Source: Candidatus Melainabacteria bacterium
GTDB lineage: Bacteria > Cyanobacteriota > Vampirovibrionia > 2-02-FULL-35-15
Length of the DNA stretch: 64,000 bases
Direction: 5' to 3'
Assembly (NCBI GenBank): GCA_016201905.1
Contig: JACQBQ010000010.1
Location: 69,184 to 133,183 of the forward strand
A model generated the notes under the pieces. It saw only the letters and a program-made list of their open reading frames with translations. It did not search any database and was not told where the DNA came from. The position numbers and the translations under genes are program-made. How positions within the stretch are numbered: position 1 is the first letter of the stretch; each line of letters opens with the position of its first letter. Shown here piece after piece: positions 7,721-49,872 of the stretch.

Positions 7721-8170
7721 GTGATGTTACACATGATTGCTAAATTTTTACTTGTCCTTTTATTTATTTCTTCCAACAATCATTGCTATGCAAATCAAGA
7801 TTACCAAGCAATTGTTTTAGGAAAAATAATAAAAAAAGAAGTTAAAGTTGTAAACAACACTTATTTAACTGAGTATAAGTTAAAAACAAAAAAATGGTTT
7901 TTCAAAAAAGATGCAATTAAAAAAACAAAGTTTATAACAATAAAGGTACTTGGTGCTGATTTGCCAGAAAAGGGAATTGTAATTAAAGCATCAACAACAC
8001 CAGACTATATACCAGTTGGTAAAGAAGCAATTTTTTTTCTTGAGCAAAACAAATTGAGACAACCAAATATTTTTACCCTATCCAAAAACGGTGTTATTTA
8101 CAATGACAGTTCATTCAAATTAAAACCAAGTGAAATTGAACATTTATACCAAGAAATAGAGGAGCTTTAA
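7721..8170 (+). CDS. Hypothetical secreted protein (signal peptide)
   Basis: 149 aa with an N-terminal hydrophobic signal and no recognisable domain. Confidence 0.35.
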   Translation: MMLHMIAKFLLVLLFISSNNHCYANQDYQAIVLGKIIKKEVKVVNNTYLTEYKLKTKKWFFKKDAIKKTKFITIKVLGADLPEKGIVIKASTTPDYIPVGKEAIFFLEQNKLRQPNIFTLSKNGVIYNDSSFKLKPSEIEHLYQEIEEL

Positions 8171-11398: not shown

Positions 11399-13174
11399 TT
11401 ATGTCAGACATAGTTTGTGGAATCTTCCGCTTTCTTTCGAATTAAGCCTGTTCCAGTTTCCTGATTCAATTATTTGCCCAGCTTCAATCACATAAATAAT
11501 ATCTGATTTTTGTACTGTTGATAATCTGTGAGTAATATGCAAAATTGTCATTGTTCCATGTAGCTCATTAATAGCATTCTGTATTCGTCTTTCATTCTCA
11601 ACATCAAGATGATTGGTTGCTTCATCTAAAACTAAAAGTGCTGGTCTACGTAATAGTGCACGTGCAAGAGCTAATCTTTGTCTTTCACCACTTGAAAGTA
11701 GAGCACCACGATCACCAATTACTGTATTAAGACCGTTCCGTAGTTTTGAAACAAAGTCATATGCCTGTGCTAACTTAAGAGCATTTTTAATTTCTTCTTC
11801 ACTTGCACCAGGACATGCCCAAAGAAGATTTGTGCGTATTGTGTCATGAAAAAGAAAAGTGTCCTGAGACACATAACCAATTTGATCTCGCCATGATTTC
11901 ATGAACTCTGAAACAAGAGGAAGATCATCAATAATAATTGATCCTTTTTGAGGAATAAGTAAACCAATTACAAGATCTGCTATTGTACTTTTTCCACTTC
12001 CAGAAGAGCCAACTATGCTAGTAGTCTCACCAAATTTTATTGTTAAATTAAGATTTAAAAATATTTTTTGTTCAGTATGTAAATCATAACCAAAGGAAAC
12101 ATCTTTCAATACTATTGAATTCTTGAAAATAATTTGTTTATTAGACTGTGCTATCAGTTTTGAGTTCTGCTCACAGAGTGAGATTAATTGAGTAACATTT
12201 TTAAATGCTGGTAACATAGCTAATATTTCATGGTAATTTTCTTGAATTGATAAAAATCTTGGAACAATACGTGTAAACAAGTAAAACAATAAGAGCATAT
12301 TGCTGGCAGGAGCATTAAGAACCTGAAAGGAAATAAAAACAAATATACTTAAAACTATTACAGTTCCTATTTCAAACATACATTTTATGCCAACTTGGTT
12401 CTTTATATGTTTAATATTTATGCCTGAAACTTTCTTGGCAGTCTCAGCAAAAATTGACAAATTGTGCTCTTCTGCATTATAACTTTTTGTAGTTTTAATG
12501 CTGCTGAAATGCTCTATACAGGCTGCATACAAGCCACTACTTTCAATCGAAAGCTCTTCTCCTGTCAAGCATGTATTTAACAACTTCTTTTTCTGGAGAA
12601 ATAAGAGTAATAATCCACCGGCAAAAGCAATCGTTGTCATAAGCAAAGAAAATTGAACAGATAGAATTAAATATACAAAAACAACAAATAAGCCAACTAC
12701 AAGCTGTAAAAGATGAACAGTACCTGAACCAACCCTCTCAATTTCCGTTGTCAGAGCATGAGTAAAATCTGATGCTTTACACCTTGAAGAGAAAAGCCAA
12801 TTTGAATTTAAAATTGCCTTATATAATTTTTGTCTTAAGTTAAGCACATAATCATGTTCTATGGAAAAACTTACTAGAGACTGATATTGATTAGTCAGGG
12901 CATGCAGAGTTATAACCATTACATAAATTCCAAGTACTGAAATCAAGTTAAAGTCAACACCTGAAGATCTAATGAAATCTATAATAAAACCAGTAACCCT
13001 ATCTGATGATGCTTCTTTAGGTCCTATACCAATAAGCTGTAGAATTGGCAGAAGAAGCATGAGCCCTACACCTTCAGTAAAACTCAGAAATACCATGAGT
13101 AATAATGCCAGAGCAATTTTTTTGTTCGCTGTTTTAAGAAGGCTTACTATATAATCAAAAAAAACTTTTTGCAT
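11399..13174 (-). CDS. ABC exporter (fused permease and ATPase); candidate RiPP/lasso peptide exporter (D protein)
   Basis: N-terminal 6-TM domain and a C-terminal NBD (GSSGSGKST, LSSGERQRLALARAL, LLVLDEAT). The ATG at 13174 is preferred over the TTG at 13198. Confidence 0.8.
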   Translation of the reverse strand: MQKVFFDYIVSLLKTANKKIALALLLMVFLSFTEGVGLMLLLPILQLIGIGPKEASSDRVTGFIIDFIRSSGVDFNLISVLGIYVMVITLHALTNQYQSLVSFSIEHDYVLNLRQKLYKAILNSNWLFSSRCKASDFTHALTTEIERVGSGTVHLLQLVVGLFVVFVYLILSVQFSLLMTTIAFAGGLLLLFLQKKKLLNTCLTGEELSIESSGLYAACIEHFSSIKTTKSYNAEEHNLSIFAETAKKVSGINIKHIKNQVGIKCMFEIGTVIVLSIFVFISFQVLNAPASNMLLLFYLFTRIVPRFLSIQENYHEILAMLPAFKNVTQLISLCEQNSKLIAQSNKQIIFKNSIVLKDVSFGYDLHTEQKIFLNLNLTIKFGETTSIVGSSGSGKSTIADLVIGLLIPQKGSIIIDDLPLVSEFMKSWRDQIGYVSQDTFLFHDTIRTNLLWACPGASEEEIKNALKLAQAYDFVSKLRNGLNTVIGDRGALLSSGERQRLALARALLRRPALLVLDEATNHLDVENERRIQNAINELHGTMTILHITHRLSTVQKSDIIYVIEAGQIIESGNWNRLNSKESGRFHKLCLT

Positions 13175-13188
13175 AATATAAAATTTCC

Positions 13189-14931
13189 CTAAGTACAAAC
13201 GGGGACTTGTTCTTTAGTTTCGTCTTGTTTTGAGCTAGGTTTCTTATTCTCACCAATTTTCCATAATCTTAACGTATGCACAAAGCCAGCATCATCAGAA
13301 AATAATTTAACTTTATCTGGAGACCAGTTCTGAACTTCACAACAGTGAGCCACGACCCTTGTTCCACTCTTTAGTTCCTTTAAAAGTTTATTTTTAAATA
13401 TAACAGGCTGGACATCTGATAAATAAAATATAACCACTGTTGCATCTGACAAATCAACTTCCATAGCGTCTTTTTGTACGAACTCAATAAGCTCGCTAAC
13501 TCCTTCTTTTTTTGCATTTACTCTTGCTTTGTCTAACAACTTAGAGTCTATATCTATGCCTACACCTCTTGCTCCAAACCTTTTTGCTGCTTCTACCAGT
13601 ATTCTTCCATCGCCACATCCTATATCGTAAATCACATCATTTGAATCAACCTGCCCAACTTCAAGTATATTTTTAATAATCTCATGCGGAGTAGCAACAA
13701 ATTCTGAAAGCTTGCTTCCACCAAATTTTCTAAAAAAGTACTTCCCAATAAGTCTAATTGGTCTAAAGAAATAATACAAAACTGATAAATCCTTTGGAAA
13801 TGTAACAGCCATTAAGTCATTCAGCGAAGGATAAAACATAAAGCAGAACAAATAGCGTAATTTTTGAAAAAGTGAGTCTCTTATCCATATCTGAAAGTCT
13901 CCAATATTATCAAACAAAGATGCACTAACTTTTCCATAAAAAATTCTGTTTTTTATTAATTCACCAAGGTGTTTAATATCCTTATCTGAATTAATAATTT
14001 TTAGTATATTATTCGGTAATTTAGCTTGCAGAAAATTATTTGCAAGATAAAGACCGAGAAGGAGCATTCTTTTACATTTAAGTTTCTTTGCTTTAGTTAA
14101 AAGCAAATCCCAATCCAGATTTTTTTTCGTGTCTATAATTTGAGCTATGTCACAAATAAGAGAGAAACTCTCCCATGCATCCTTTGCACCATTTAAGCAA
14201 AGCACAAGAAGTAGGTCTTCAAGATCAAGCACTGGCAATGGCTTATCAAAAATTGTTGTTTTTTCATAGTGCCACGACAAATTATCAAGTGTAGTCCCAA
14301 GTAAAAAATAAGAAGCCGTAATTCCCCAATGGATTTCCAGGTGTATACCATCCTCATTATCAAGCTCATAAGAATAGTCATACTTTAAGTAAGCATCTTC
14401 AGTATCTGGGTGTAATTTATGAAAAGGCGTGTATCCTTCTTGGATAAGTATCTCTTTCACTTTCAAAGCATCTCTCTCTAGGACAAGCAAATCAATATCT
14501 CCATACTCTCTTAAACCAAGGTTGTTATATAGAATTAAAGCTAAAATAGGACCCTTATAGGGCATTACAAAGATCTTGTTTTGCTCCAGCAGATTTAAAA
14601 CTTTAATTAATTCTTTAGTCAAGTACAGATTACTTTTAGTAGCTGCGCGAAAATGATTCTTTAATAATTCCATTACATTAAATGGAAGTAGCTCGACAGG
14701 AAGTGAATTAAGGTTCCTATATAACAAGGGAAACAATTTATGTGTTCTGGCAGTATTTATAATATAATCCCAGTCAAGGCTTTCATTTAAGAGATCTCTT
14801 AGTTTACTAATCATATTTGTATTTAAATTAGTTCTTGCACAAGACGTTATAAGTTCTATTTCAAGATTATAATTTTTCATAAAATCAATTTTTAAATTAA
14901 TTGCAGATAAGTTGCCTTTCCGCCTTATCAA
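13189..14931 (-). CDS. Fusion of a PF14907-like 'uncharacterised nucleotidyltransferase' and a class I SAM-dependent methyltransferase
   Basis: The N-terminal half has YKGPILALILY...GDIDLLV, typical of the nucleotidyltransferases found in kinase-type lasso clusters. The C-terminal ~170 aa has VIYDIGCGDGRILVEAAKRFGARGVGIDID (SAM motif I). The start may instead be the internal Met at 14880. Confidence 0.6.
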   Translation of the reverse strand: MIRRKGNLSAINLKIDFMKNYNLEIELITSCARTNLNTNMISKLRDLLNESLDWDYIINTARTHKLFPLLYRNLNSLPVELLPFNVMELLKNHFRAATKSNLYLTKELIKVLNLLEQNKIFVMPYKGPILALILYNNLGLREYGDIDLLVLERDALKVKEILIQEGYTPFHKLHPDTEDAYLKYDYSYELDNEDGIHLEIHWGITASYFLLGTTLDNLSWHYEKTTIFDKPLPVLDLEDLLLVLCLNGAKDAWESFSLICDIAQIIDTKKNLDWDLLLTKAKKLKCKRMLLLGLYLANNFLQAKLPNNILKIINSDKDIKHLGELIKNRIFYGKVSASLFDNIGDFQIWIRDSLFQKLRYLFCFMFYPSLNDLMAVTFPKDLSVLYYFFRPIRLIGKYFFRKFGGSKLSEFVATPHEIIKNILEVGQVDSNDVIYDIGCGDGRILVEAAKRFGARGVGIDIDSKLLDKARVNAKKEGVSELIEFVQKDAMEVDLSDATVVIFYLSDVQPVIFKNKLLKELKSGTRVVAHCCEVQNWSPDKVKLFSDDAGFVHTLRLWKIGENKKPSSKQDETKEQVPVCT

Positions 14932-15850
14932 TTTGCATGTCAGATAGTATTGCCAAACTTAGTTTTCCTGGCTCCAAAATGCTTGCCTCATAAGTTATTT
15001 TTTTTGTAACAGCAAACTCTGTGGTTTTATTAAGAATAGAAAATTGCCTTTTTAACATTTCAGGATTATAGAGATCTAATCGAAAAGAAGACTGTAACAA
15101 TTCAACAAGACTTTCTTGGGCTGACAATGGTTCAATTGAAACTTCTTTTACATTCTCAGATGGGTTTAAAAAGTAAATGTGAGAGAGCCTATACTCACCT
15201 GTAGAATATTGTCTTTGGGAAAGAGTTATCCTGCACTTTTCCGTCGGATCATCAATCTCAGCATCTGGATTTAAAAACTTTAATACTTCAGGCCAAAGCC
15301 CGACGTGTGGGGTACCACTACTTGTCCACACTTCATTATTTTTTAAAAAGATGGGGACTACATTGTCTGACAGTAAAGCTAATCCCTCTTTTATCAAGCC
15401 AGCTGTTATTGTAGATTTACCAAAACCACTTTTGCCAATAAATACAAGGACACCTTTTTTGCTTAGGACACTACTTGCATGAAGAGCCTCAATACCACTT
15501 AGATTTAAAGCTTTTGGAAGTACTTGTGTAAATAAAATATGCTTTACTGCTTCTGACTCATAATCATCAAAACACTTGTAATAAATGTACTTACTGTCAG
15601 GTGAAATTGCAAAATCTACTTTTTCATCAATAAAGTGAAGAACAAAGTAATCATTGTTTTTTTTTCCTGCTCTTAGACAGACATGACCATCTATCATGTG
15701 CCAGTCATGATACCAAAGTACATTGTCTGTAATATTTTCATGTTTTTTATCCCAGGGCAACACTCTTATATCAGGCTCTTTGAAGGTCTTCTCAAGCCCA
15801 GAAGCAATTTCCTCTTCCAGATCTATTGATAGCCCATAAACACTATACAT
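14897..15850 (-). CDS. HPr kinase/phosphorylase-like serine kinase (RiPP/lasso-associated HprK homolog)
   Basis: 317 aa with a P-loop GKSGFGKST resembling the HprK C-terminal domain. It sits immediately downstream of the candidate precursor. Confidence 0.6.
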   Translation of the reverse strand: MYSVYGLSIDLEEEIASGLEKTFKEPDIRVLPWDKKHENITDNVLWYHDWHMIDGHVCLRAGKKNNDYFVLHFIDEKVDFAISPDSKYIYYKCFDDYESEAVKHILFTQVLPKALNLSGIEALHASSVLSKKGVLVFIGKSGFGKSTITAGLIKEGLALLSDNVVPIFLKNNEVWTSSGTPHVGLWPEVLKFLNPDAEIDDPTEKCRITLSQRQYSTGEYRLSHIYFLNPSENVKEVSIEPLSAQESLVELLQSSFRLDLYNPEMLKRQFSILNKTTEFAVTKKITYEASILEPGKLSLAILSDMQIDKAERQLICN

Positions 15851-15861
15851 TTTTTTCTTAA

Positions 15862-16017
15862 TTAAGCGCTTCTTCTGGTAGTTTCTTTTCCCCTACTCCT
15901 TGTACCTTGAGTTAATTTTGCTATAGTTCCATACTTAATTAATACTGGTGTATTATATGGTTTTTTTTGGCCCTTGTTTAAGCTGGTATCTAAATTAGAT
16001 TTTGACTTGTTTTCCAT
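15862..16017 (-). CDS. Candidate lasso-peptide precursor (51 aa; not in the ORF track)
   Basis: Translation gives MENKSKSNLDTSLNKGQKKPYNTPVLIKYGTIAKLTQ|GTRSRGKETTRRSA. The leader matches YxxPxLx3Gx5Tx exactly. The core starts with Gly and has Glu at position 8. The ORF overlaps the 3' end of the cyclase gene by 23 nt in another frame. Confidence 0.5.
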   Translation of the reverse strand: MENKSKSNLDTSLNKGQKKPYNTPVLIKYGTIAKLTQGTRSRGKETTRRSA

Positions 16018-17962
16018 ATTTTTCAGTCCCCCTATGACTTATTATTCTACCAAAATTATTTCTTGCCCAATATTCAAGGCTAATAATCTGCCACATAATG
16101 TCGCTCCACGTAGAATCATCCAGGTTATTTGCATATTTTTGACAATATTGCTCATATGAATCTAAAACTTTTCCTTTATCTATTAACCCTATCTGATGTA
16201 AATATGAATCATTTAACAGTTCTTTCACTTCATTATGATTTTCATAAATAAGCAATTTATTAATTAATGAAGTAAAGTCAGCTTTATCCATTCTGTTTTT
16301 TATTTCAACTGGTAATAATTGTTTCATTGACTCTCTTAAAAAACCTTTTGGTTTCCATCCATACACAAGCATTTCTTCTGGTACACTTGACACAAACTCA
16401 ATTATTCTTCTATCACATAACGGGTGCCTAAGTTCAACTGTATTTGAACTGGCAGCCAATCTATCTAACAGCTCAAATCCACTGACTCTATAACCATTAA
16501 ATAATGAACTGTATGTTTCCTTGCGGCTTATTGTCTTAAATTTTTTGTTTTTAAGATACCAGGGTTCTTCTCTTAGCCTTTGAAAAAGATTTTCTCTGTG
16601 AGGCTGGTTAATCCAGTCATATGTTTTTATCGGACGAATAGTCCTATAAAGTTTTTTAAACCACCTTGGTAGCATTGAACGAAGTGAATTAAGCGACATT
16701 GACAAAACAAGTTTCAGCACAAGTGGATAAGAAGCTAGTTGATATTGTGAGTATGCATCAATAAATGCTAATCCTTGAGCAAATTTTCCTGTAAACAAAA
16801 GATCTGTTGCAAGATACATTGATGCATCAATGTAGTCATCTCCCCCTTCACCAGTAAAAATCACTTTTCTTCCTTCATTTTTTGCCAGGTCATAAACAGG
16901 TTTAGTTAGAATTATCCCTTCAACACTCCATAGTGCCTGACTTGCGTGTATAGCATCAGGTACTTCCCAGAGAGGTTTTGGTGCATGCGAATTAATCCGA
17001 TTTGATTTAATCTTATATTTTTTTTGTACTATATTTATAAAATCACTTTCATCAGCAGGTTTTGTATCAAAGACTGCAGAATACCCGGATGTTTCTACAT
17101 TGGTTTTCTTTTTTGATTTTAAATCATCAATTAATGCAAGTACCGAAGAAGAATCCAGCCCACCACTAAGTGTTATTCCAGGTTCACTATTTAATCTGAG
17201 CTTGGAAATCATTGATTTGGTAAAAACTTCCATAAAAGCTTCAGTATAATCTTCAATTTTTTTAAACTCATTTGTATAATTCAGATTGATATCCCAGTAT
17301 TGTCTAATTTTAAAGTCATCTTTTTTTACTGTCATGCAATGAGCTGGTCTAAGTTTGAAAATATTTTTAAATTCTGTTCTTTCTGAATTTTCAAAGTTGT
17401 TGGTTAAATAAAGTGCCATAGAATCTAAATCTGGCTCCTTTGGTATATCAGGATGTTTAAATAAAGGAATAGCGTCAGATGCAAATGCCAAAAACCTTTC
17501 ACACTTATAAAAGTAAAATGGCCTTACCCCTATAATATCTCTTGCACAAAAGAGCTGATTGTTTTTACTATCCCATATTGCAAAGGCAAAGTCACCTATT
17601 ATTTTTTTAAGACAGGCTTCTTTCCAGAGGAAATAAGAGTAAAGAACAATTGAAGCATCAGTTATAAGCTCTGCTTTTATTCCACATGACTTTAATTCTG
17701 AGCTCAGTTCATTTCTATTATCGATTCTTCCATCCATAACAAGTGTCAATCCTGTGTTTTTATCATGAAATGGTTGTCTTTCTATTTCTTGTTCAGTTGT
17801 AGTCCAGAAGGCTCTATGCGCCAGTCCAACAACCCCATTAACCCAAACATCTCTTGCATTCTGACCTCTATCTGAAAGGATTTTATCGTCTATAACTTTG
17901 TTAAGGACATTTATATCAAACTGTTCTCTGTCAAAATAAAAGATTCCTGTTATTGCACTCAT
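15995..17962 (-). CDS. Asparagine-synthetase-like protein; candidate lasso cyclase (C protein)
   Basis: 655 aa with the PP-loop SGGLDSS. The N-terminus is MSAITGI rather than the AsnB MCGI glutaminase nucleophile, as expected for an isopeptide-forming cyclase rather than a true AsnB. Confidence 0.7.
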   Translation of the reverse strand: MSAITGIFYFDREQFDINVLNKVIDDKILSDRGQNARDVWVNGVVGLAHRAFWTTTEQEIERQPFHDKNTGLTLVMDGRIDNRNELSSELKSCGIKAELITDASIVLYSYFLWKEACLKKIIGDFAFAIWDSKNNQLFCARDIIGVRPFYFYKCERFLAFASDAIPLFKHPDIPKEPDLDSMALYLTNNFENSERTEFKNIFKLRPAHCMTVKKDDFKIRQYWDINLNYTNEFKKIEDYTEAFMEVFTKSMISKLRLNSEPGITLSGGLDSSSVLALIDDLKSKKKTNVETSGYSAVFDTKPADESDFINIVQKKYKIKSNRINSHAPKPLWEVPDAIHASQALWSVEGIILTKPVYDLAKNEGRKVIFTGEGGDDYIDASMYLATDLLFTGKFAQGLAFIDAYSQYQLASYPLVLKLVLSMSLNSLRSMLPRWFKKLYRTIRPIKTYDWINQPHRENLFQRLREEPWYLKNKKFKTISRKETYSSLFNGYRVSGFELLDRLAASSNTVELRHPLCDRRIIEFVSSVPEEMLVYGWKPKGFLRESMKQLLPVEIKNRMDKADFTSLINKLLIYENHNEVKELLNDSYLHQIGLIDKGKVLDSYEQYCQKYANNLDDSTWSDIMWQIISLEYWARNNFGRIISHRGTEKYGKQVKI

Positions 17963-18912
17963 TGCTTTTCCAACTTTACCAAGCCTATATTGATTTGCTC
18001 ATTTAAGAAAGAAAGTATATCACCCTCACACTCTTCTTTTTTTATATCATATTCATTTAAGAGCATTTGGGTTATTTCTTTGATTTTAATTGTTTTTTTA
18101 GCTTGATTTAAAATATTTATTCCGATCTGGTCTGTTGCATAGCAAGATGAATCTTTAAAATTATAAATTAAAATCTGATTGCCCAGAGATCGCATGAAGT
18201 AGTCTCCAGTTGTTTTTATCAAAGAGTCCTGCGATAAATGAAAATGTTTATTTAATTTTCTTAAGCTAGTATTTATTTTTTTTCTGTGAATTGGCTTGTA
18301 AAGAGGTCTTGCTCTAAACCAGCCAGTTAAAACAGTTCTTGTAACTTTGCCGTATACCTTGTTTACTCTGTGCTCTAAATAAGGCGCTACTCTAAAAATC
18401 ACAGCATCACCAAAACCATTATTAATAACTTCTTTGACCAATTCTTTTGTTCTTGAATTACGAATTTGAATGGCTCCACCTATGTAAAAATCTGTACTTA
18501 GATTAATACTGATTGATATCATTCTGTTATTTGTTAAGTCGTCATGCCATTTGTCATATTGTTCTTTGTCCGGGATTTTACTGTAAACCCTGCCAGTAAA
18601 ACATCCGATTTTTTTACAGCCTGTGATTTGTTCTATAAACTTAAATAACTTTTCATCATTCATCAAGAAGTGAAGAAAGCCTAATATTTTTTCATCTTCA
18701 AATTTATAACCAACTGCTTCATCATCTCCAACTTTATATTTATCTTCCAAGAACTTCTCTTTCCTTAAGCAGTTCTGAATTAAGGACAGGAGATTAGGCT
18801 CTAAAAATCTTTTTAACTTTAAGCAATGATTTTCACTAAACTCACTTCGCAGTATTTCAAAATCAGACTCTATTTCTGAGATTAAAATACCTGATTTTGT
18901 TAATTTAACCAT
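17959..18912 (-). CDS. Prolyl-4-hydroxylase-like 2OG/Fe(II) oxygenase fused to a C-terminal PqqD-like RRE domain (paralog 1 of 5)
   Basis: WHDD...GGAIQI...FGDAVIFR...EHRV...GKVTRTVLTGWF fits the HxD...H...R 2OG-FeII_Oxy_3 pattern. The C-terminal ~85 aa (..NILNQAKKTIKIKEITQMLLNEYDIKKEECEGDILSFLNEQINIGLVK) is PqqD-like. Confidence 0.6.
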   Translation of the reverse strand: MVKLTKSGILISEIESDFEILRSEFSENHCLKLKRFLEPNLLSLIQNCLRKEKFLEDKYKVGDDEAVGYKFEDEKILGFLHFLMNDEKLFKFIEQITGCKKIGCFTGRVYSKIPDKEQYDKWHDDLTNNRMISISINLSTDFYIGGAIQIRNSRTKELVKEVINNGFGDAVIFRVAPYLEHRVNKVYGKVTRTVLTGWFRARPLYKPIHRKKINTSLRKLNKHFHLSQDSLIKTTGDYFMRSLGNQILIYNFKDSSCYATDQIGINILNQAKKTIKIKEITQMLLNEYDIKKEECEGDILSFLNEQINIGLVKLEKQ

Positions 18913-18923
18913 TTTAAATTGTT

Positions 18924-19892
18924 TTATCTCGTCATTTCAGTGCATACAAGCCTATTTATCTTCATTTGTCTTATTAGATTTCTTAAATCTATTTCACATT
19001 CTTTTCCACCTACATCATATTCTTTTAAAATTAAATTTCTTATTTCAAAAAACGATTTTGGTCTGTCAAGTATTTTAAGGATTTTTCCACCAATCGAGTC
19101 CAATCCAAAACATACTCCAGTCACAGGATTAAATACAAGCACTTTATCTTTTGAATCTTGAAAGAATAAGTTCTGACTTCTCGACAATACTATATCAGTA
19201 TTATATTTTTTAGCTTCGCTCAGATTCCTATCAAATGTAATACTTCTTGAACAGTCTTCAAAAACAGGTTTGTAGATTGGTTTTGATCTAAACCATCCCG
19301 CAAAAAATGTTCTGCTTGCTTTTCCAGTTACCTCAGTAAGTCTATGTACTAACTTTGGAGATATTCTAAAAATAACTGCATCACCAAAACCAGTATTTGC
19401 AACCTCCTTTACGACTTTTCCTATGTTTATATCTTTGAGCTGAAGAATTCCTCCTTCATAAGCTTTAGTACTTAGATTTATACTCATTGCAATCATCCTA
19501 TTATCGACCAAGTCATTGTGCCAAGCATCTCTATGACCAGTGCCTGGGCTCATACGGCAAATCCTGCCTGTAAAAGAACCAATCTTACAGCAACCTGTAA
19601 CTTTCTCAATAACCTGAAAGAGTTTTTTGTCATTCACAAAAAACCTAAGCAAGCATTCAAGATTTTTATCTTTTAGCCTGCACATTGGATTGTCCTGATT
19701 GCTTGCAGGATAATTCACAGTAAAAAAATCATCACATTCATCAATTTTTAATTGTATAAGTCCAAGTAAATCCTTCTCAAGGAAATTAGTTAATTTTATA
19801 CAATGCTTTTTATCAAATTCTTTTTTCAAAAGATTAAGATCTTTTTCATTTGCTGTTAAGTTAAAACCTGAACTGGTAATTTGGATATTCAT
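18924..19892 (-). CDS. 2OG/Fe(II) oxygenase-RRE fusion (paralog 2)
   Basis: AWHNDLVDNRM, GGILQL, FGDAVIFRISPKLVHRLTEV and GKASRTFFAGWF, with a C-terminal PqqD-like segment. Confidence 0.6.
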   Translation of the reverse strand: MNIQITSSGFNLTANEKDLNLLKKEFDKKHCIKLTNFLEKDLLGLIQLKIDECDDFFTVNYPASNQDNPMCRLKDKNLECLLRFFVNDKKLFQVIEKVTGCCKIGSFTGRICRMSPGTGHRDAWHNDLVDNRMIAMSINLSTKAYEGGILQLKDINIGKVVKEVANTGFGDAVIFRISPKLVHRLTEVTGKASRTFFAGWFRSKPIYKPVFEDCSRSITFDRNLSEAKKYNTDIVLSRSQNLFFQDSKDKVLVFNPVTGVCFGLDSIGGKILKILDRPKSFFEIRNLILKEYDVGGKECEIDLRNLIRQMKINRLVCTEMTR

Positions 19893-19907
19893 ATCAATAC
19901 TTAAAAA

Positions 19908-20873
19908 TTATTCAATACTTACAAGCCCATTCTCTTCCATCTCTTTAAGAAGATATAACAAATCTTTTTCACATTGCTCAGTTTCTATATCAAATTCTTT
20001 TAAAAGCACATTTTTAACTTCACTGACAGTAAATGGCTTGTCAATGACTTGCAATACTCTTTCTCCAACAGCATTCAAGGCAAAACAGCTAGTACTAAAT
20101 GGATTAAACACATGAAGTCGTTCATTAAAATATTTGGAAAATAAATTCCTGTTCTTTTTTACAGAGGCAGATAACTGTACTTGTGGCAATTTTTCGTAGC
20201 TATTGTCATTTGTGCGATTTTTGGCAACTGGCTTGAACACTGGTTTATAAAAAGGTTCCGAAAAAAACCAGCCTGCATAAGCAGTTCTATGAGCTTTTCC
20301 TTTTACTTCAGTTACTCTATGATCCAGGTAATTTGAAATCCTAAATATTACTGCATCTCCAAAGCCAGTATTCTTGACTTCCTGAATAATTTTGTCCGTA
20401 GTAAAATCCTTAATTTGCAGGCTTCCACCTTCGTACACTTCAGTACTTAGATTCACACTCATTGCAATCATCCTATTGTCCACATTGTCATCATGCCATG
20501 CATCAAGGGTGTCAGCATCCGGGCTTAATCGGTATATTCTCCCGCTAAAGCAGCCTATTTTCTTTGAAGAAGTGATTTTTTCAATAAGCTCAAAAAACTT
20601 TGGATCATTTGTCAAGAATTCCAAGAGTCCTATTGCCTGTTTATCCTTAAGTCTAAGTTCTTTTGAATCAAGACCTATCTTTTTCTTATAACTTTTTGAG
20701 TAAAAGTCTCCAATTTTTATTTTCTCTTGAATTAATCCTAGAATTTCTTCATCAAGTAATTTTGGTAGCTTAACCCAGTGATTTTCACTAAAGTGCTTGA
20801 GCAAATCATCTATGTCTTTTTCTGTATAAGAACATTTTATTCCTTCTCTTTTTAATTGAATTATTGACTGCAT
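19908..20873 (-). CDS. 2OG/Fe(II) oxygenase-RRE fusion (paralog 3)
   Basis: AWHDDNVDNRM, GGSLQI, FGDAVIFRISNYLDHRVTEV and GKAHRTAYAGWF, with a C-terminal PqqD-like segment. Confidence 0.6.
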   Translation of the reverse strand: MQSIIQLKREGIKCSYTEKDIDDLLKHFSENHWVKLPKLLDEEILGLIQEKIKIGDFYSKSYKKKIGLDSKELRLKDKQAIGLLEFLTNDPKFFELIEKITSSKKIGCFSGRIYRLSPDADTLDAWHDDNVDNRMIAMSVNLSTEVYEGGSLQIKDFTTDKIIQEVKNTGFGDAVIFRISNYLDHRVTEVKGKAHRTAYAGWFFSEPFYKPVFKPVAKNRTNDNSYEKLPQVQLSASVKKNRNLFSKYFNERLHVFNPFSTSCFALNAVGERVLQVIDKPFTVSEVKNVLLKEFDIETEQCEKDLLYLLKEMEENGLVSIE

Positions 20874-20888
20874 ATATTTTTGATTTTT

Positions 20889-21824
20889 TTAGTTTTTAAT
20901 TGTAAGTAATTTATTTACCTCCATTTCATTGAACAATGAAATTAAATCCTTTTCAAATATTTCTTCACCAATATCATATTCACTAGTAACTATTTTTTTT
21001 ATCTCGCTAAACATTATTGGTTTTTTAACTATTTCCCAGAGCCTTGTTCCCAGGTTCTCAAGACCAAATCCTGTTTCTTCAACTGGATTAAATATAAAGA
21101 GTTTGTTCTCAATATATTCTTCCATTAACCCTTTCTCTAACATTATGATTGAACCACTTTTAATCTTTGATTTTTTATTATTAACTAATAAGGTTTGATT
21201 ATTATCAAAGGATTTTAAGTCGATATGTGAACTAAGCCAACCTGCAAGTGCAATCTTTGGGATATTTCCTTCGACTTTAGTTAGCATATGTTGATAGTCA
21301 GTTGAAATAGAAAATATAATAGCATCTCCGGGTACTGTATTTTTTATCTCTTGAATTATTTTTTTTGTTTTTTTATCTCTAATTAGCAGTACTCCACCAG
21401 AATATATATCAGAACTCAGATTTATGCTTATGGTAAGTACACGATGCCATACAACATCAGAATGCCACATGTCATAGTGATCTTCACCAGGAATCATTTT
21501 GTAAACTCTTCCGCTAAAATACCTGATTTTTTTTAATCCTGTTATTTGTTCAATTGCTTTTAAAAATTTTTCATCATTAACTATTTCATGAAGTATCTGG
21601 TTCATTTCAGGATCTTTCATGACTAAATCTTTGCCAGCATCCTTGTGATCAAGTGTTATAAAATCAGCTTTATTAATTCTTTCTTGAATATCCTTTAAAA
21701 GGTCAGAAACTATAAGATTTGAAAGTTTAATATGTAAGTTTTTTTTAAATTCTTCTTGAAGTTTCTGAAGTTGAGTAGAACCTTCTGAGACATCGGTACC
21801 ATTTTTTGTAATTTGAATTTTCAT
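20889..21824 (-). CDS. 2OG/Fe(II) oxygenase-RRE fusion (paralog 4, most divergent)
   Basis: MWHSDVVWHRV, GGVLLI, PGDAIIFSISTDYQHMLTKV and a PqqD-like C-terminus. Lys replaces the downstream Arg. Confidence 0.55.
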   Translation of the reverse strand: MKIQITKNGTDVSEGSTQLQKLQEEFKKNLHIKLSNLIVSDLLKDIQERINKADFITLDHKDAGKDLVMKDPEMNQILHEIVNDEKFLKAIEQITGLKKIRYFSGRVYKMIPGEDHYDMWHSDVVWHRVLTISINLSSDIYSGGVLLIRDKKTKKIIQEIKNTVPGDAIIFSISTDYQHMLTKVEGNIPKIALAGWLSSHIDLKSFDNNQTLLVNNKKSKIKSGSIIMLEKGLMEEYIENKLFIFNPVEETGFGLENLGTRLWEIVKKPIMFSEIKKIVTSEYDIGEEIFEKDLISLFNEMEVNKLLTIKN

Positions 21825-22798
21825 AAGACTAAAGCAGCTTTTTTAATTGTTATTAGTTTGTTTTCTTGAAATTCATTAAGAATCGCAAATAAATCTTTTT
21901 TACAACTTTCTCTACTTATCTCGTATGTATTTATGAAGTGATTTTCAATATCTCTAAATGCTTGTGGTTTTTCAAGAAGATTTAATATATCAGCTCCAAC
22001 TTGATTTGTACTGTAACATGCATCATGTTCAAGATTCAAAACCATTGTTTCATTTTCAAAAGCTCTTGCAAAAGTGCTGTCATTTAAAGTAAGTATTGAG
22101 TTGTTATCAACAGAAAAAGTTGATTTTTTTTTCTCTTTACTTTTTTGTTCTATGTTACTTTCAAACTCTGGCTTAAAAGCAGGTTCTGATCGGAACCAGC
22201 CAGGAAAAGCAGTTTTAGCAACAGTTCCTGTTACTTCTGTAACCATATGCTCAAGATTCGGAGCAATTCTAAAAATTACACAGTCACCATATCCAATATT
22301 TGCTATTTCGTGTAATATCTCTTTCGTATTTCTATTTCTTATTTTAAGTATTCCACCGGAATAAATTCCCTTACTCAAGTTTATGCTTATGGATGCAAGT
22401 TGATTTTCACTGATATCCTGATGCCAATTATCATAATGACCTAAATTAGGAACAAGGCTATAAACACCACCGCTAAAGATTCGAATCTTTTCACAACCTG
22501 TTATTTGCTCTACCAGCTCAAATAAAAACGGATCGTTCATTAAAAACTCAAGGAGTGTGTTTACTGTTTCATCATTTAAACGATAATCAACTGCATCTGA
22601 CTCTGCAAGTTTATACTTATCTTCATAGAAACCCACATCATCCATTTTTTCCTGAACAAGCTCTAAAAGTTTGGGCTCTAAAAACTGTGGAAGCACTATA
22701 CAGTGTTGCCTATCGTAGAGTTTTTGCAAAGAAAATAAGTCTTCTTTAGTACCCAAAAACTTTGTACTAGTTTTCGTTGCTTGAATTATTGGTTTCAT
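21821..22798 (-). CDS. 2OG/Fe(II) oxygenase-RRE fusion (paralog 5)
   Basis: NWHQDISENQL, GGILKI, YGDCVIFRIAPNLEHMVTEV and GTVAKTAFPGWF, with a C-terminal PqqD-like segment. Confidence 0.6.
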   Translation of the reverse strand: MKPIIQATKTSTKFLGTKEDLFSLQKLYDRQHCIVLPQFLEPKLLELVQEKMDDVGFYEDKYKLAESDAVDYRLNDETVNTLLEFLMNDPFLFELVEQITGCEKIRIFSGGVYSLVPNLGHYDNWHQDISENQLASISINLSKGIYSGGILKIRNRNTKEILHEIANIGYGDCVIFRIAPNLEHMVTEVTGTVAKTAFPGWFRSEPAFKPEFESNIEQKSKEKKKSTFSVDNNSILTLNDSTFARAFENETMVLNLEHDACYSTNQVGADILNLLEKPQAFRDIENHFINTYEISRESCKKDLFAILNEFQENKLITIKKAALVL

Positions 22799-24315
22799 TG
22801 TTTTATCCTATCCAGACTTTCTAGAAGTTCTGAAAAAATATTTATTACTTCCTCAGGAAAAACCTTAACTGATTCTAGTAATTCACTCAATGCTTGCTTA
22901 ACTTTTTTTTCTTTTAAATAAAGCAGTGCTAGGTGAATATAAATCATAGTACTGTAGTGTCCGCCTGCAATACCTATTTTATAGCTACTGATTGCTTTTG
23001 TAGTAAGATTTTTCTTTGCATAAAGTTTGGCAAGTTTTACATGCACTTCAAAATAATCAGGATCGGTTAAAAAATTTTCCTTGGCTCTGCTTAATATAAA
23101 GGCATTTAAGGATCTGTACCCTTTAAGAGATAATTTTAGTGACTTTTCAAATAAATTTATTGCTTCATTAGTCTTATTTTGCTTTTTTTGTATATCTCCA
23201 AGAGCATGATAAGCATCTGGAAGGTTTTCATTTAATCTTATGGAATTGCAAATAAAGTCCTCTGCCTCTTTCCAGTTTTTCTTTTTCATTGCAATTAGTC
23301 CTAAGATTAAATGTGCATTAGCGTCTTCAGGATCTAGTGAAAGAACTTTATTTACTTCGATTTCTGCCTTGCGGAAAAGCTTATCTTCAAAATATACATA
23401 TGCCAGATTATTGTAAGCAGTCCTATATGAAGGATCTATATTTAGTGCCTGCTTATAATAACTTTGGCTTTCTTGTACTTTGTTCATATTTTGGTTTAAA
23501 AGCGCAAGGTGGAAGCAAGGGACTGGAGAGGCAGGCATAAGATCTTTAGCTTCAATATATTTTGCCTCAGCTAAAAGAAACTTATCATCGTTTGCCAATA
23601 TAGATGCTTCTTTTACCATTTCCATCATTCTTAAGGATGAGCTGTTGCCATTTTTTATTCTAAGAGCAAGTTCATCTCCAAGATATTTCCATTTCAATGG
23701 CGTATATCCACCTTCTACAGAATATGCAATAGTAATAATATCTGAATGTATTTTTTTTAGATTTATCCTATTTAAAAGTTCATTGGGCCAACACCAGGGA
23801 ATCTCAGAATGTTTATCAGTCTTGCCATACGACACGTGTGGAATAATCATATAGTCAACATCAATGTCCAGTAAAACATCTTCAGTAATCTCTGGTATAG
23901 AATCCAAAGTGCATATCCTGAGAGGTTTATTGAGAACAAAAGCAGAAATTTCATCTTTATCTATTTTTATTTTTTTAGAACTTTCAGGATAGCGTCTGAT
24001 TATTCTTTTCAAGTGTTGTAATATAGCTTTCTTATTTTTTTGTGATTCCATGCTCTCATCCGGTACAATCCAAAAGACTTCTTTTAAAATATCTTCTTCA
24101 AGCGCTCTGCATATAAAATTGGCAATTGTAATTTGAGAACCTTTTTTTATAAACCACATATCGTGATGCGCATCGATATGAACCAATCTTCTATTTTTTA
24201 CTCCGGATTCTTTCCACACATAGTATGAACGATCATGATTTTCCATGATATGAACACTAGCACTACGCTGGTTTGCATATTCTGATTTTATTTCTTTTTT
24301 GGAAGCAGTACTCAA
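22795..24315 (-). CDS. Two-domain protein: N-terminal ureohydrolase (arginase/deacetylase)-fold-like domain and C-terminal TPR repeats
   Basis: H27, D48-A-H50-H-D52 (a DAHxD-like motif) and D150-I-D152-V-D154, with arginase-like spacing (about 21 and about 102 residues). The C-terminal ~280 aa are TPR-like (..AYNNLAYVYFEDKLFRKAE..). TTG start with an AAGGAG RBS. Confidence 0.45.
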   Translation of the reverse strand: MSTASKKEIKSEYANQRSASVHIMENHDRSYYVWKESGVKNRRLVHIDAHHDMWFIKKGSQITIANFICRALEEDILKEVFWIVPDESMESQKNKKAILQHLKRIIRRYPESSKKIKIDKDEISAFVLNKPLRICTLDSIPEITEDVLLDIDVDYMIIPHVSYGKTDKHSEIPWCWPNELLNRINLKKIHSDIITIAYSVEGGYTPLKWKYLGDELALRIKNGNSSSLRMMEMVKEASILANDDKFLLAEAKYIEAKDLMPASPVPCFHLALLNQNMNKVQESQSYYKQALNIDPSYRTAYNNLAYVYFEDKLFRKAEIEVNKVLSLDPEDANAHLILGLIAMKKKNWKEAEDFICNSIRLNENLPDAYHALGDIQKKQNKTNEAINLFEKSLKLSLKGYRSLNAFILSRAKENFLTDPDYFEVHVKLAKLYAKKNLTTKAISSYKIGIAGGHYSTMIYIHLALLYLKEKKVKQALSELLESVKVFPEEVINIFSELLESLDRIKQ

Positions 24316-24362
24316 GCTATTAACTTAACTCCTTTCCAATCAAATGAAAAGATTTAATTAAT

Positions 24363-24653
24363 TTAGGCATTTTTCACTTCGACTAAGCCTGATTCTTCTA
24401 AATTTTTTACAAGTTCTATTAAATCGCATTCAAGTTGCCTGGCATCTACATCATACAATTCAAGTATGTAACTTTTTACTTCTTTTAATTTCTTAGGTGT
24501 TTGAATTATATTCCATACTTCTGTACCAAGATTATCCAAGCCATAATAAACGCCATCTTTATGATTTAATATAACTGACTCTCCAGATAAATCACAAGAG
24601 AGCTGATTACTGGAAACAGTTAAAATTGAATCTTCAGAAATTATGTTTTGCAT
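24363..24653 (-). CDS. Standalone PqqD-family protein (RiPP recognition element; lasso B1-like)
   Basis: 96 aa: ..ILNHKDGVYYGLDNLGTEVWNIIQTPKKLKEVKSYILELYDVDARQLECDLIELVKNLEESGLV. Confidence 0.7.
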   Translation of the reverse strand: MQNIISEDSILTVSSNQLSCDLSGESVILNHKDGVYYGLDNLGTEVWNIIQTPKKLKEVKSYILELYDVDARQLECDLIELVKNLEESGLVEVKNA

Positions 24654-24733: not shown

Positions 24734-26170
24734 CTACTCAATCAATCTTTCATTAAGCAGGTAAGAGGCTATACATTTAGATAGTGCTTCATAGCCATAT
24801 CTATTAAAATGCCCCCAATCAAGTGGTCCATGTACTAGTTTTTTACTTGCAGCAAGTTTTATAGATGGGCGAGTATCTAGAAATTTCACCGCTAAGCTAT
24901 TAGATATTTGACTAATATGATTTGCTATTAAGTTACTCCTAGCTGTTACATAATATGGAGTATAAACACTTCCTTCTTTAATGGAAAAATTGCTATAAGA
25001 ACCATATTTTATATTAGTTTTTAAAGAGTAAGAAGAAAAAAGAGATGGTATGTAAACCACTATAATTTTCGAATTTGGGAAGTGGTTTACTAAAAAGTTC
25101 AGACTATATTTCAATATTTTAAACGATGTTTCTAATTCATTTTTAGTTAAGCCCCGACCAGCTAAATCATCCACATTAAGACTAATCGCATATTTTACAT
25201 CATCACTTAATTTATTAACTTTTTCACTATTTATAAAAGTACAGTCTGGTAGTGAGAAAATCTTACCATTTACCTCCACTACGTTATGAGATAAGCTGTT
25301 TTCACATTTTGGAATTTTAAATTCCTCTGTTATTTCTTTTTTCATTATGTTTGAGAGATTAAATCTAAACAAATTAATAAAAAAACTGGTTGCTATAAAA
25401 TTATTGTTTGTAATAGATTTTTCATATTTAATTTTTTCAAGAAGGGAACGACTAAAAGCCAGACTGTCTGCAGTTATATTAACCCTTTCCTTATTGACTA
25501 AATTATCCTCTAAATCATTCCCTTCAAAAAAATAAAAAAGTATTACTTCTGGAGCTTCTATATGAAACCTTGATCTCAGCATTTCTATACTATAAACAAT
25601 ATTTTTTACAGCAGTAGGGCTTCCAGCACCACCAACCCCAAAAGAAATAACATCTTTTTTCAAGAGGTCATGCAAAACATGTGCTGAGTAATATTTTGGA
25701 TTTTTATTTTTATCCACTTCAAAGAACCAATCACCCTCACCATCTGCATAAGAGTCGCCAATGATGGCTATATATTCTTTAGGAATTAAATGTTTCTTTG
25801 AGGATTGGCATAATATACTGGAAGGATGCATAAGATGATCCTGCAATTTAAGTGAAAAGAATGGTAATGATAATGGAAATAAAAGTTCAAGAATGAATAC
25901 AGCTAGTAAAAGGGAAGAGACACCTAACCCAACTCTTACAGAAAATTCATAAAAGAATTTTCTTTTCTTATTTAGAACAATATTCAATCCACAAATAAGA
26001 ACCATTAGGTCAAATGAGTAAATTATTAGTTTTGTAAAAACAGATTTTATTTTTCCATCTTCATACAACAAGCTATTTATAGTAGATTCATTTAATAAGA
26101 AGGAAACAATGATTAGCATCAATCCTATTAGAAGCTCGATTTTTCTTTGATTTTTCTTTATTAATTCCAT
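24734..26170 (-). CDS. Membrane-anchored SGNH/GDSL-like hydrolase
   Basis: 478 aa with about 3 N-terminal TM helices, a block I motif IAIIGDSYADGEG and a block III motif FFEGNDL. Confidence 0.45.
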   Translation of the reverse strand: MELIKKNQRKIELLIGLMLIIVSFLLNESTINSLLYEDGKIKSVFTKLIIYSFDLMVLICGLNIVLNKKRKFFYEFSVRVGLGVSSLLLAVFILELLFPLSLPFFSLKLQDHLMHPSSILCQSSKKHLIPKEYIAIIGDSYADGEGDWFFEVDKNKNPKYYSAHVLHDLLKKDVISFGVGGAGSPTAVKNIVYSIEMLRSRFHIEAPEVILFYFFEGNDLEDNLVNKERVNITADSLAFSRSLLEKIKYEKSITNNNFIATSFFINLFRFNLSNIMKKEITEEFKIPKCENSLSHNVVEVNGKIFSLPDCTFINSEKVNKLSDDVKYAISLNVDDLAGRGLTKNELETSFKILKYSLNFLVNHFPNSKIIVVYIPSLFSSYSLKTNIKYGSYSNFSIKEGSVYTPYYVTARSNLIANHISQISNSLAVKFLDTRPSIKLAASKKLVHGPLDWGHFNRYGYEALSKCIASYLLNERLIE

Positions 26171-38932: not shown

Positions 38933-39092
38933 TTATTATGAAGAAGCGTAATACTCCGTGGCTTGCCACGAGAGATATAAGCGACGAATAACAAACCGAC
39001 TTCTCCGACGACTGGTGACGAAGTCATTAACTTCGCGAAATACCCTGCGGGCTTGCCCCAGGGATAGCGAAGTTAAAAAGAAGTCGGTTTAT
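38933..39092 (-). mobile_element. MITE-like repeat, copy 1 (reverse orientation relative to copies 2-4)
   Basis: About 160 bp, more than 95 percent identical to the elements at 41817, 49174 and 56363. It has internal stem-loops (CCCTGGGGCAAGCCCGCAGGG; AACCGACTT...AAGTCGGTT) and supplies the C-terminal ..KPTSF* of the adjacent gene. Confidence 0.6.
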
Positions 39093-49583: not shown

Positions 49584-49853
49584 TCATCCGCAAAAACATT
49601 TGTGTATAACACAGGATTTTGGAAGAGGACATTCGCTTTTTTCTTTCATCTTAAACCACTCTTTTTTAAAACAATCTCTACTGCTAACATATCCAAAAAC
49701 AAAATCATAAAGACTTTCCATATCCTGATTATGCATCTTTGATAAACAGTTCAAACATATCTGTTCCTCTGCATATCCTAATGCAAGGTTCATTGTATAT
49801 GCTCTACGACATATATTTTGACTACACTGTGGACATGGAAACGGGAAGTCCAT
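49584..49853 (-). CDS. Small Cys-rich protein (possible DUF1289-like metal-binding protein)
   Basis: 89 aa with about 11 Cys residues, including CPQC and CLNC pairs. Confidence 0.3.
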   Translation of the reverse strand: MDFPFPCPQCSQNICRRAYTMNLALGYAEEQICLNCLSKMHNQDMESLYDFVFGYVSSRDCFKKEWFKMKEKSECPLPKSCVIHKCFCG

Positions 49854-49872
49854 TCATTACTTATAACATAGT

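Follow-up and report, generated by a model that had tools for sequence, protein, structure and literature searches.

A twelve-gene lasso-peptide operon with a predicted peptide arginase, five oxygenase-RRE fusions and no B2 peptidase within 64 kb in an uncultured melainabacterium

Background

What kind of product would come from a lasso-peptide operon that encodes five oxygenases, an arginase-like protein and a methyltransferase beside its precursor, and how would its leader be removed if the usual leader peptidase is not encoded nearby? The question is raised by a block of genes from an uncultured Candidatus Melainabacteria bacterium (assembly GCA_016201905.1, contig JACQBQ010000010.1), of which we analysed the 64,000 nucleotides from position 69,184 to 133,183. 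This whole stretch is called the window below, and coordinates are counted from its first letter. The transglutaminase-like cysteine protease B2 is a defining enzyme of lasso-peptide biosynthesis and the known partner of the protein B1. The tailoring known for lasso peptides comprises disulfides, phosphate and hexose groups, methyl esters, acetylation, one type of hydroxylation, epimerisation, citrulline and succinimide. Gene content and synteny, the conservation of the precursor and of catalytic residues, and folds are what is observed here, and they lead us to read the block as an intact operon for a hypermodified, cationic lasso peptide of 14 residues, made along the pathway proposed below; we give this reading a probability of about 0.7.

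Results and Discussion

Operon, precursor and core biosynthetic genes

Twelve contiguous open reading frames (ORFs) on the minus strand fill positions 11399-24653 (~13 kb), with overlaps of 4-35 nt or gaps of at most 47 nt between them, and all of them are full length and uninterrupted. We regard the block as a compact lasso-peptide operon of 12 genes. Its sequence matches, with full identity, proteins of the metagenome-assembled genome (MAG; locus tag HY094_01240, on a contig of 141 kb) as well as Logan contigs of SRR12113409 and SRR12113410, and the operon is flanked by ordinary chromosomal genes (SUF operon, Grx/BolA, SecA, BipA). An earlier note, made from the letters alone, had described a lasso-like cluster for a ribosomally synthesised peptide with post-translational modifications (RiPP), with a standalone PqqD protein, five 2-oxoglutarate (2OG) oxygenases fused to RiPP recognition elements (RREs), an arginase-fold/TPR protein, a cyclase without the Cys2 of AsnB, a 51-aa precursor candidate, an HprK-like kinase (K), a PF14907-type nucleotidyltransferase fused to a methyltransferase, and an ABC exporter (D). 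Searches of each protein with the hidden Markov models (HMMs) of Pfam and NCBIfam agree with every domain named there and uphold a lasso-type RiPP cluster with K, a PsmN-like nucleotidyltransferase and D.

The precursor gene A (15862..16017, like all genes of the operon on the minus strand) encodes 51 aa, which divide into a leader of 37 aa (15907..16017) ending in ...KKPYNTPVLIKYGTIAKLTQ and a core of 14 aa, GTRSRGKETTRRSA (15865..15906); the junction reads ...PYNTPVLIKYGTIAKLTQ|GTRSRGKE. A GGGGGA Shine-Dalgarno-like run lies ~10 nt upstream of its ATG, and the ORF passes the NCBIfam model NF033521 'lasso RiPP family leader peptide' with 22.4 bits (cut-off 19). The leader is further marked by the motif YxxPxLxxYGxxxxLTQ, with Thr at position -2, which is kept in L004, L008, L009 and dozens of other related loci (L-numbered loci are related loci from metagenomes or MAGs, L005/L006 being one close relative). 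Orthologous precursors are encoded in clusters from other metagenomes at the equal position, directly after the cyclase: leader end PYKSPTLIQYGTVAKLTQ and core GTRSRGKETRRRKA in L004, PYKPPTLVQYGTVTKLTQ and GTRSKGTETTRRAL in L008, VYTSPTLVQYGALSELTQ and GTSLKNGEASRSKL in L009. G1, T2, E8, R11 and the length of 14 residues are invariant in all four cores, and two precursor comparisons over 35 codons gave 10/8 and 17/12 synonymous/non-synonymous differences, an excess of synonymous changes. We take the precursor, on this evidence, to be real, conserved and under purifying selection, and the first recognition of the 51-aa ORF as a candidate proved well founded.

Because G1 and E8 are invariant, a G1-E8 macrolactam with a six-residue tail is predicted, and the product would be a very small (14 aa) and strongly cationic lasso peptide; an eight-residue ring and a six-residue tail are feasible in a 14-mer because canucin is a 14-mer. 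The core contains neither Pro nor Asp and ends in ...RRSA, while the orthologous cores end in KA, AL and KL. A loose regular-expression search for further precursors returned mostly noise in GC-rich loci.

The cyclase C (15995..17962) matches NF033535, PF00733 and PF13537 (GATase_7). Among NCBIfam models it scores highest with NF033535 'lasso peptide isopeptide bond-forming cyclase' (419 bits, E 4e-125, below the exception-level cut-off of 525); the protein starts MSAITG, with Ser2 in place of the AsnB Cys2, and the PP-loop SGGLDSS is intact (LSGGLDSSS in the sequence). Remoter homologues are annotated as lasso cyclases in cyanobacteria, and a metagenome scan for closer relatives found none above 39% identity. 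Its sequence identifies C as a lasso-type, Cys2-less homologue of Asn synthetase. Among the related cyclases, the L004 ORF (L004:3-2081) has its first ~60 residues replaced by a ComM/Mg-chelatase-like sequence (YGPPGTGKTMLAK...), so this ORF start is probably a chimeric assembly. L025 (532-6524, a 'delta proteobacterium' MAG) carries three tandem lasso-cyclase paralogues of 704, 638 and 631 aa; next come a precursor, K, an arginase-TPR gene and an oxygenase that belongs to the 2OG family described below and seems to lack an RRE.

At the upstream end of the operon stands B1 (24363..24653), a standalone PqqD-type RRE of 96 aa (PF05402, E 4.5e-12), which scores 60 bits against the lasso PqqD chaperone model NF033536 (cut-off 80). 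Together with the five RREs fused to oxygenases, it brings the PqqD-type recognition domains of the operon to six. At the other end, D (11399..13198) is an ABC exporter of 599 aa with a transmembrane domain (PF00664, ABC_membrane) and a nucleotide-binding domain (PF00005, ABC_tran) and without a C39 peptidase domain; it is 48% identical to the L004 exporter.

A predicted peptide arginase in lasso clusters

The gene next to B1 (22795..24315) encodes an arginase-like domain (aa ~20-225) followed by a TPR domain (aa ~226-506). The sole PDB sequence that matches the N-terminal domain with a low E-value is the peptide arginase OspR (8BRP; E 2e-7, family profile E 2e-16), the next match being agmatinase at E 0.024. 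Identity to OspR is ~22%, the Pfam Arginase model and the NCBIfam peptide-arginase model NF052474 (E 3.5e-12) both match weakly, and fold comparison finds an arginase alpha/beta/alpha fold like that of OspR. The Mn ligands of OspR (H12, D39, H41, D43, D165 and D167; PMC10028609) map to H27, D48, H50, D52, D152 and D154, which are invariant or nearly so across the arginase-TPR family. Two of the three hallmark motifs of peptide arginases (defined in PMC12703449) are clearly present: DxHxD reads D48-A-H50-H-D52, with D48, H50 and D52 invariant in an alignment of 17 N-terminal domains and conserved at 90% or more among 43 homologues, and the LDIDLDYFSC-type motif reads L-D150-I-D152-V-D154-Y-M, with the three Asp invariant. 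In the region of the third, EEH(N/H)EAF, the protein has M-E-N-H27-D-R-S-Y, that is ENHD rather than EEH(N/H), with the ligand His kept and Asn at the position of OspR Glu11. The TPR-rich PbsE converts Arg to Orn experimentally and has the ligands H10, D31, H33, D35, D165 and D167 (PMC12257519); the spacing H-(21)-DxHxD is equal in PbsE and in the window domain. We predict from these likenesses that the N-terminal domain is a peptide arginase of the OspR/PbsE type, hydrolysing Arg of the precursor to Orn, which makes the first call of an arginase-fold/TPR protein more precise.

Among GTDB representative genomes, 123 loci carry an arginase-TPR protein, all of them in MAGs. Homologues of at least 33% identity sit in lasso clusters of the order B1-B2-arginase/TPR-C-A-K, which occur in Acidobacteriota, Desulfobacterota, Nitrospirota, Binatia and other groups. 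Arg is present in 21 of 22 cores encoded at lasso loci with the gene and in 17 of 38 cores from related loci lacking it (p = 6e-5 by Fisher's test, with no correction for phylogeny). Lasso precursors are not among the peptide-arginase substrates listed in the literature searched, which are NHLP, N11P, SCIFF, SCCRRSCN and DD(I/V)LF (PMC12703449) and the FHAFRF precursors of PbsE (PMC12257519), and ornithine is not listed in the two reviews of lasso post-translational modifications consulted (2022 and 2026). The arginase-like enzyme had been listed in a tailoring set not described for lasso clusters; this holds for the literature searched, but not for the genomes, in which it is a conserved part of many lasso clusters of uncultured bacteria.

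A subset of loci numbered L041-L091 (Omnitrophota, Elusimicrobiota and other MAGs; e.g. L043, L044, L051, L054, L066, L072) has arginase-TPR homologues of at most 31% identity, with a PF14907-like nucleotidyltransferase ~4-5 kb away and no lasso cyclase, B1/B2 or K detectable. These loci may represent a different, undescribed peptide-modification system.

Five oxygenase-RRE fusions

Between the arginase-TPR gene and the cyclase lie five Fe(II)/2OG oxygenase genes, H1 (21821..22798, 325 aa), H2 (20889..21824, 311 aa), H3 (19908..20873, 321 aa), H4 (18924..19892, 322 aa) and H5 (17959..18912, 317 aa). Over 17959-22798 all five match 2OG-FeII_Oxy_3 (PF13640; E 4e-7 in H2) and, in the RRE, which is C-terminal in H1, PqqD (PF05402), the latter weakly in H2 (E 0.004). 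The HxD...H iron triad (H127, D129, H185) is invariant in 47 aligned sequences that include all five paralogues. An AlphaFold2 model of H3 (pLDDT 92.9) has a jelly-roll and, after it, a PqqD-like beta3-alpha3 domain; Foldseek matches it best to protein prolyl hydroxylases (Tpa1/OGFOD1, PHD2 and P. putida P4H) and also returns the free Orn/Lys enzymes HalD, HalB and BesD.

The paralogues are mutually 34-46% identical, and four of the five have one-to-one counterparts in L005/L006: H5 in a 221-aa gene, H4 in the second half of a 545-aa gene (54% identity), H3 in a 325-aa gene and H2 in a 324-aa gene. In a neighbour-joining tree H2 groups with L006_324, the pair having L004_314 as its sister, and H5 falls with L008_339 and with L006_221, a protein of 60% identity that has no RRE. 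This pairing across clusters suggests that the paralogues are old and individually maintained, as expected of site-specific enzymes. The 545-aa protein of the close relative (L005:6043-7680, L006:2451-4088) has two tandem oxygenase domains before a single RRE, and its H5 orthologue (221 aa) has none; the oxygenase domains there total five, as in the window.

CanE hydroxylates the linear lasso precursor with the help of an RRE (PMC9266682), and because of this need the fusion of RREs to the oxygenases is readily explained. Arginases followed by Fe/2OG Orn hydroxylases are known from the phaeornamide pathway (PhaR then PhaI; PMC8784127) and from a biphenomycin-like pathway (PbsE then PbsQ/BpmG; PMC12257519). 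The oxygenase-RRE family is small: there are 46 word-indexed matches, and an exhaustive HMMER search gave 223 clusters at E <=1e-30, with ~45 of the top 150 being full-length fusions. Oxygenases of the same family adjoin the arginase-TPR gene in L049 and L069 (Acidobacteriota) and in L025, seemingly without an RRE, judged by their lengths and by matches confined to the 2OG domain. Outside lasso clusters, a 2OG-oxygenase-RRE fusion with 30-34% identity to those of the window occurs as an orphan in L002 (10001-10987; GCA_027403385.1), with an ABC exporter, a type III polyketide synthase and F420-related genes as neighbours and no lasso genes within 10 kb. In another member of the oxygenase family, P0045, the RRE stands at the N-terminus.

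The K protein and the nucleotidyltransferase-methyltransferase fusion

K (14897..15850, 317 aa) matches HprK-related models weakly and in the P-loop region only (PF07475, E 8e-5; TIGR04352, E 9e-7). Aligned to HprK 3TQF it reads 'llsDN' versus 'lvcDD'; the His, the GxxGxGKST motif and the DD pair are conserved at 90% or more in 36 K homologues, and only the window and L004 read DN. In lasso kinases His-Lys-Asp-Asp is essential and the C-terminal Ser of the precursor is the conserved target (PMC9266682). We conclude that K is an HprK-related P-loop protein, as had been proposed, but one that may be weakened, inactive or repurposed. Likewise, the placement of the cluster with the kinase-containing (paeninodin/pseudomycoidin-type) systems is borne out by K, the PsmN-like nucleotidyltransferase and D, but not by the catalytic DN or by a core without a C-terminal Ser. 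Of 40 cores in the wider environmental clade, 21 have Leu and only one has Ser as the last residue, so that the 'kinase' of this clade cannot obey the rule of a C-terminal Ser known from the characterised lasso kinases. The metagenome loci L092-L171 form a large environmental lasso clade of the order B1-B2-C-A-K(-N)(-D), with cores that are often Met-rich and end in Cys-Leu, e.g. GGQGTGSDSGTTMMMMCL.

The fusion gene N-MT (13189..14931) encodes a PsmN-like nucleotidyltransferase (aa 51-301) and an aKMT-like methyltransferase domain (aa ~420-563); the gene call in the Logan contig is 563 aa, and the start is likely the ATG at 14880. The former domain matches PF14907 (NTP_transf_5) with E 8e-60 over 247 of 249 profile positions and has the GDID metal motif. 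PsmN is needed for hexosylation of phospho-Ser in pseudomycoidin (PMC6993621). The latter matches the protein-lysine N-methyltransferase model NF041081 over all 142 positions (E 1.7e-35, 122 bits, cut-off 200) and PDB 5JWJ, 5FA8 and 5BXY at E ~1e-34, crenarchaeal aKMT being closest. It is a predicted aKMT-like lysine N-methyltransferase, and its closeness to aKMT points to N-methylation of K7 or of an ornithine and not to a lassomycin-like C-terminal ester. L004 carries a nucleotidyltransferase-nucleotidyltransferase-methyltransferase fusion.

The missing B2

The earlier note had found no transglutaminase-like B2, and several searches confirm its absence from the 64-kb window: tblastn with the B2 of L005 gave a best E of 0.87, a two-sequence B2 HMM (--max, no filters) run against six-frame segments of at least 60 aa gave 0.94, a Pfam scan of nearly all window ORFs of at least 110 aa showed neither PF13471 nor any other protease family, and a regular expression for the HAW motif detected no B2. 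A 149-aa ORF (7721-8170) has a fitting size, but looks secreted and has no Cys/His/Asp signature, and was rejected as a B2.

In the wider cyclase clade B2 normally lies right between B1 and C, and it is encoded at 24 of the 32 loci that have both an arginase-TPR gene and a cyclase. The gene order is PqqD-B2-PqqD-arginase/TPR-oxygenases-cyclase in L005/L006 and B1-B2-C-A-K in L009, and the window B1 is most similar (47%) to the PqqD preceding B2 in L005. Since B2 stands next to B1 in most relatives, its absence is no trait of the family of this cluster, and it would be either encoded elsewhere in the genome or lost. We favour the former, since the operon has kept B1 and the Thr(-2) determinant and its remaining genes are all intact.

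A proposed pathway

The RRE domains would hold the linear precursor by its leader while the tailoring enzymes act. The arginase-TPR enzyme would hydrolyse one or more Arg to ornithine, R11 being the prime candidate because it is invariant in all four orthologous cores, and the five anciently diverged oxygenases would each hydroxylate a particular side chain, most plausibly of Orn, Arg or Lys. The methyltransferase is expected to N-methylate a Lys or Orn amine, and the K/N pair may add phosphate and hexose to Ser or Thr, T2 being invariant and K possibly weak or inactive. Cleavage after Gln(-1) would then free the core from its leader, the enzyme being a B2 encoded elsewhere or, in its absence, a host protease; C would close the G1-E8 isopeptide ring and D would export the product.

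Several observations weigh against this reading. For the arginase, the oxygenases, the methyltransferase, K and N alike, both substrates and sites are inferred. The nearest folds of the oxygenases are prolyl hydroxylases, yet the core has no Pro. K has the His, the P-loop Lys and the first Asp, with Asn for the second Asp, and the cores of the window subclade (4 clusters) have no C-terminal Ser. Promoter and terminator scans stayed at the level of shuffled sequence (65 vs 70 expected and 8 vs 6 expected, respectively). To these are added the points that concern the arginase and B2, which have to be weighed together with the alternatives they support.

The arginase-like/TPR protein might be some other metal hydrolase, or a TPR scaffold or chaperone for the lasso machinery, in which case the oxygenases would hydroxylate Thr, Ser, Lys or Arg directly, or beta-carbons in the manner of CanE, with no ornithine intermediate. 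Its domain scores 46 bits, well below the curated peptide-arginase cut-off of 350, and the position of OspR Glu11, which is proposed to hold the guanidinium group (PMC10028609), is Asn or Asp across the family; moreover, the second precursor copy of the arginase-TPR locus L036 has no Arg, and most arginase-TPR lasso loci carry no oxygenase. Retention of all six ligands of the binuclear Mn centre, the catalytic activity of the TPR-arginase architecture in PbsE (PMC12257519) and the strong enrichment of Arg in the associated cores speak for an arginase nevertheless, and we consider the scaffold or other-hydrolase explanation improbable.

A different explanation is that the lineage has lost B2 altogether; a housekeeping protease would cut the leader, or the cyclase would do without it. 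The window encodes no B2, whereas 39 of 43 related loci have one (metagenomic loci of at least 7 kb from the wider cyclase clade), and B1 and the arginase-TPR gene are direct neighbours just 47 nt apart, a junction that recurs without B2 in L008, a relative of 49% identity. A precedent is pseudomycoidin: psmCAD alone yields the peptide in E. coli and B. subtilis, and a Stanieria cluster without B genes is mentioned in the same study (PMC6993621). The pseudomycoidin cluster had been cited as functioning without a leader peptidase, which is correct for the heterologous hosts, in which psmB1, psmB2 and the leader are dispensable, but the cluster does encode both proteins (PMC6993621). On the other hand, B1 is retained, the leader still shows its Thr(-2) and YxxP determinants, a B1-B2 pair is present in the close relative L005/L006, B2 lies several kb from B1 or on the other strand in P0057, L016, L036 and L039, and the search covers 64 kb of a 141-kb contig from an incomplete MAG, the L008 locus being only 8.8 kb long. 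A B2-free lineage is thus unlikely. Still another view would see a decaying cluster, disabled by the loss of B2 and of the second PqqD of the L005 type, with the Asp-to-Asn change of K as part of the decay. B2 is indeed missing where relatives have it and K departs at a catalytic residue, but all 12 ORFs are full length, the Fe triads, Mn ligands, PP-loop and GDxD motif of the nucleotidyltransferase are intact, the DN variant is shared with the 54%-identical K orthologue of L004, hence old and maintained, and the precursor shows its synonymous excess, which makes decay very unlikely. An intact operon completed by a B2 in trans is therefore the reading that we prefer.

Neighbouring genes

Upstream of the operon, positions 24734-44865 hold an array of eight paralogous polytopic membrane proteins of ~555 aa (26361-28028, 27994-29661, 29658-31349, 32722-34410, 35522-37198, 37202-38920, 40430-41695 and 43180-44865), of which the three tested had no Pfam match even at E 1. 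GDSL-like proteins are interleaved in the array (24734-26170, 34462-35532 and 42091-43038, and more weakly 31351-32703 and 39073-40455). The first of these, a 478-aa protein upstream of B1, was considered as a member of the cluster and rejected: it is part of the membrane/GDSL array and is missing from related clusters. Two members of the membrane family lie directly upstream of the L005 lasso cluster. Beyond the array follow a 659-aa protein with VWA and FHA domains (45044-47023) and three ORFs (47353-48306, 48440-49192 and 49739-50251) without a Pfam match at the thresholds used. Downstream of D, the genes for an MBL-fold protein, BolA and Grx were likewise rejected as members; they are housekeeping genes and are not kept beside the L004 exporter.

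Significance

The set of tailoring enzymes, which had been thought to be undescribed for lasso clusters, is described neither in the 2022 review of lasso modifications nor in the 2026 review nor in the literature covered by full-text searches. The lasso class and each enzyme family are known; the combination, the link between lasso peptides and arginases and the arrangement without B2 are not. Should the proposed pathway be correct, it would add Arg-to-ornithine conversion, multi-site RRE-guided hydroxylation and amine methylation to the tailoring of a 14-residue lasso, and the product would be a polycationic lasso resembling products of non-ribosomal peptide synthetases. The presence of the arginase-TPR gene in dozens of lasso clusters implies that ornithine lasso peptides may be common and overlooked. 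The five oxygenases, each self-targeting, would serve as a ready set of tools for hydroxylating peptides at selected sites, and if B2 is truly missing genome-wide, the operon would be a natural case in which to test lasso maturation without it. As scaffolds, lasso peptides are much prized, and the cluster is a good lead for genome mining. A bolder interpretation, in which a natural B2-free pathway makes the first (hydroxy-)ornithine-containing, N-methylated lasso peptide, the arginase-TPR gene marks a large unrecognised lasso subclass and the target of the 'kinase' is not a C-terminal Ser, appears doubtful to us as a whole.

Comparison with known systems

Clusters of the paeninodin/pseudomycoidin type have the order C-A-K-B1-B2-(N)-D (Zhu et al. 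2016; Zyubko et al. 2019, PMC6993621). The operon shares with them a lasso cyclase, a PqqD protein B1 of the split-B type, K directly after A, a PsmN-like PF14907 protein, an ABC exporter and a leader with Thr(-2). In contrast to these clusters it has no B2 in cis, no C-terminal Ser (...RRSA), D-N in K for the essential D-D and a nucleotidyltransferase fused to a lysine-methyltransferase-like domain, and it has in addition the arginase-TPR gene and five oxygenase-RRE fusions; the known hosts are Bacillota or Proteobacteria, whereas this one is a Melainabacteria MAG. The cluster would thus work like a member of this type but does not qualify as one, and its membership appears only partial.

The arginase-like protein resembles OspR (landornamide), FlmR/OhkR and PbsE (PF12640) in its arginase fold, six Mn ligands and DxHxD and DIDxDY motifs. 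Its TPR fusion matches PbsE, and its co-occurrence with Fe/2OG hydroxylases parallels PhaR/PhaI and PbsE/PbsQ. It differs in the low identity to OspR, in the sub-cut-off NCBIfam score, in ENHD for EEH(N/H) and in its association with a lasso precursor, and the partner hydroxylases are PHD-like (PF13640) here but of cupin/JmjC type in the known peptide-arginase pathways. With CanE of the canucin pathway the operon has in common an Fe/2OG oxygenase that would act on a 14-residue lasso precursor with RRE help, as its genes suggest. However, CanE acts alone, relies on CanB1 in trans and beta-hydroxylates the C-terminal Asp of the 14-mer canucin, whereas the window has five paralogues with RREs of their own, from a different 2OG subfamily, and a core without Asp.

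A further related system is the uncultured lasso clade of the order B1-B2-(arginase-TPR)-C-A-K from Acidobacteriota, Desulfobacterota, Nitrospirota and Binatia MAGs, with which the operon shares the cyclase clade (25-40% identity), the leader motif, K and an arginase-TPR gene of 33-51% identity. Unlike the window, this clade nearly always has B2, carries oxygenases in only 6 of 80 loci, seemingly not fused to an RRE (to judge by their lengths and by matches that cover the 2OG domain alone), and has a nucleotidyltransferase that is not fused to a methyltransferase.

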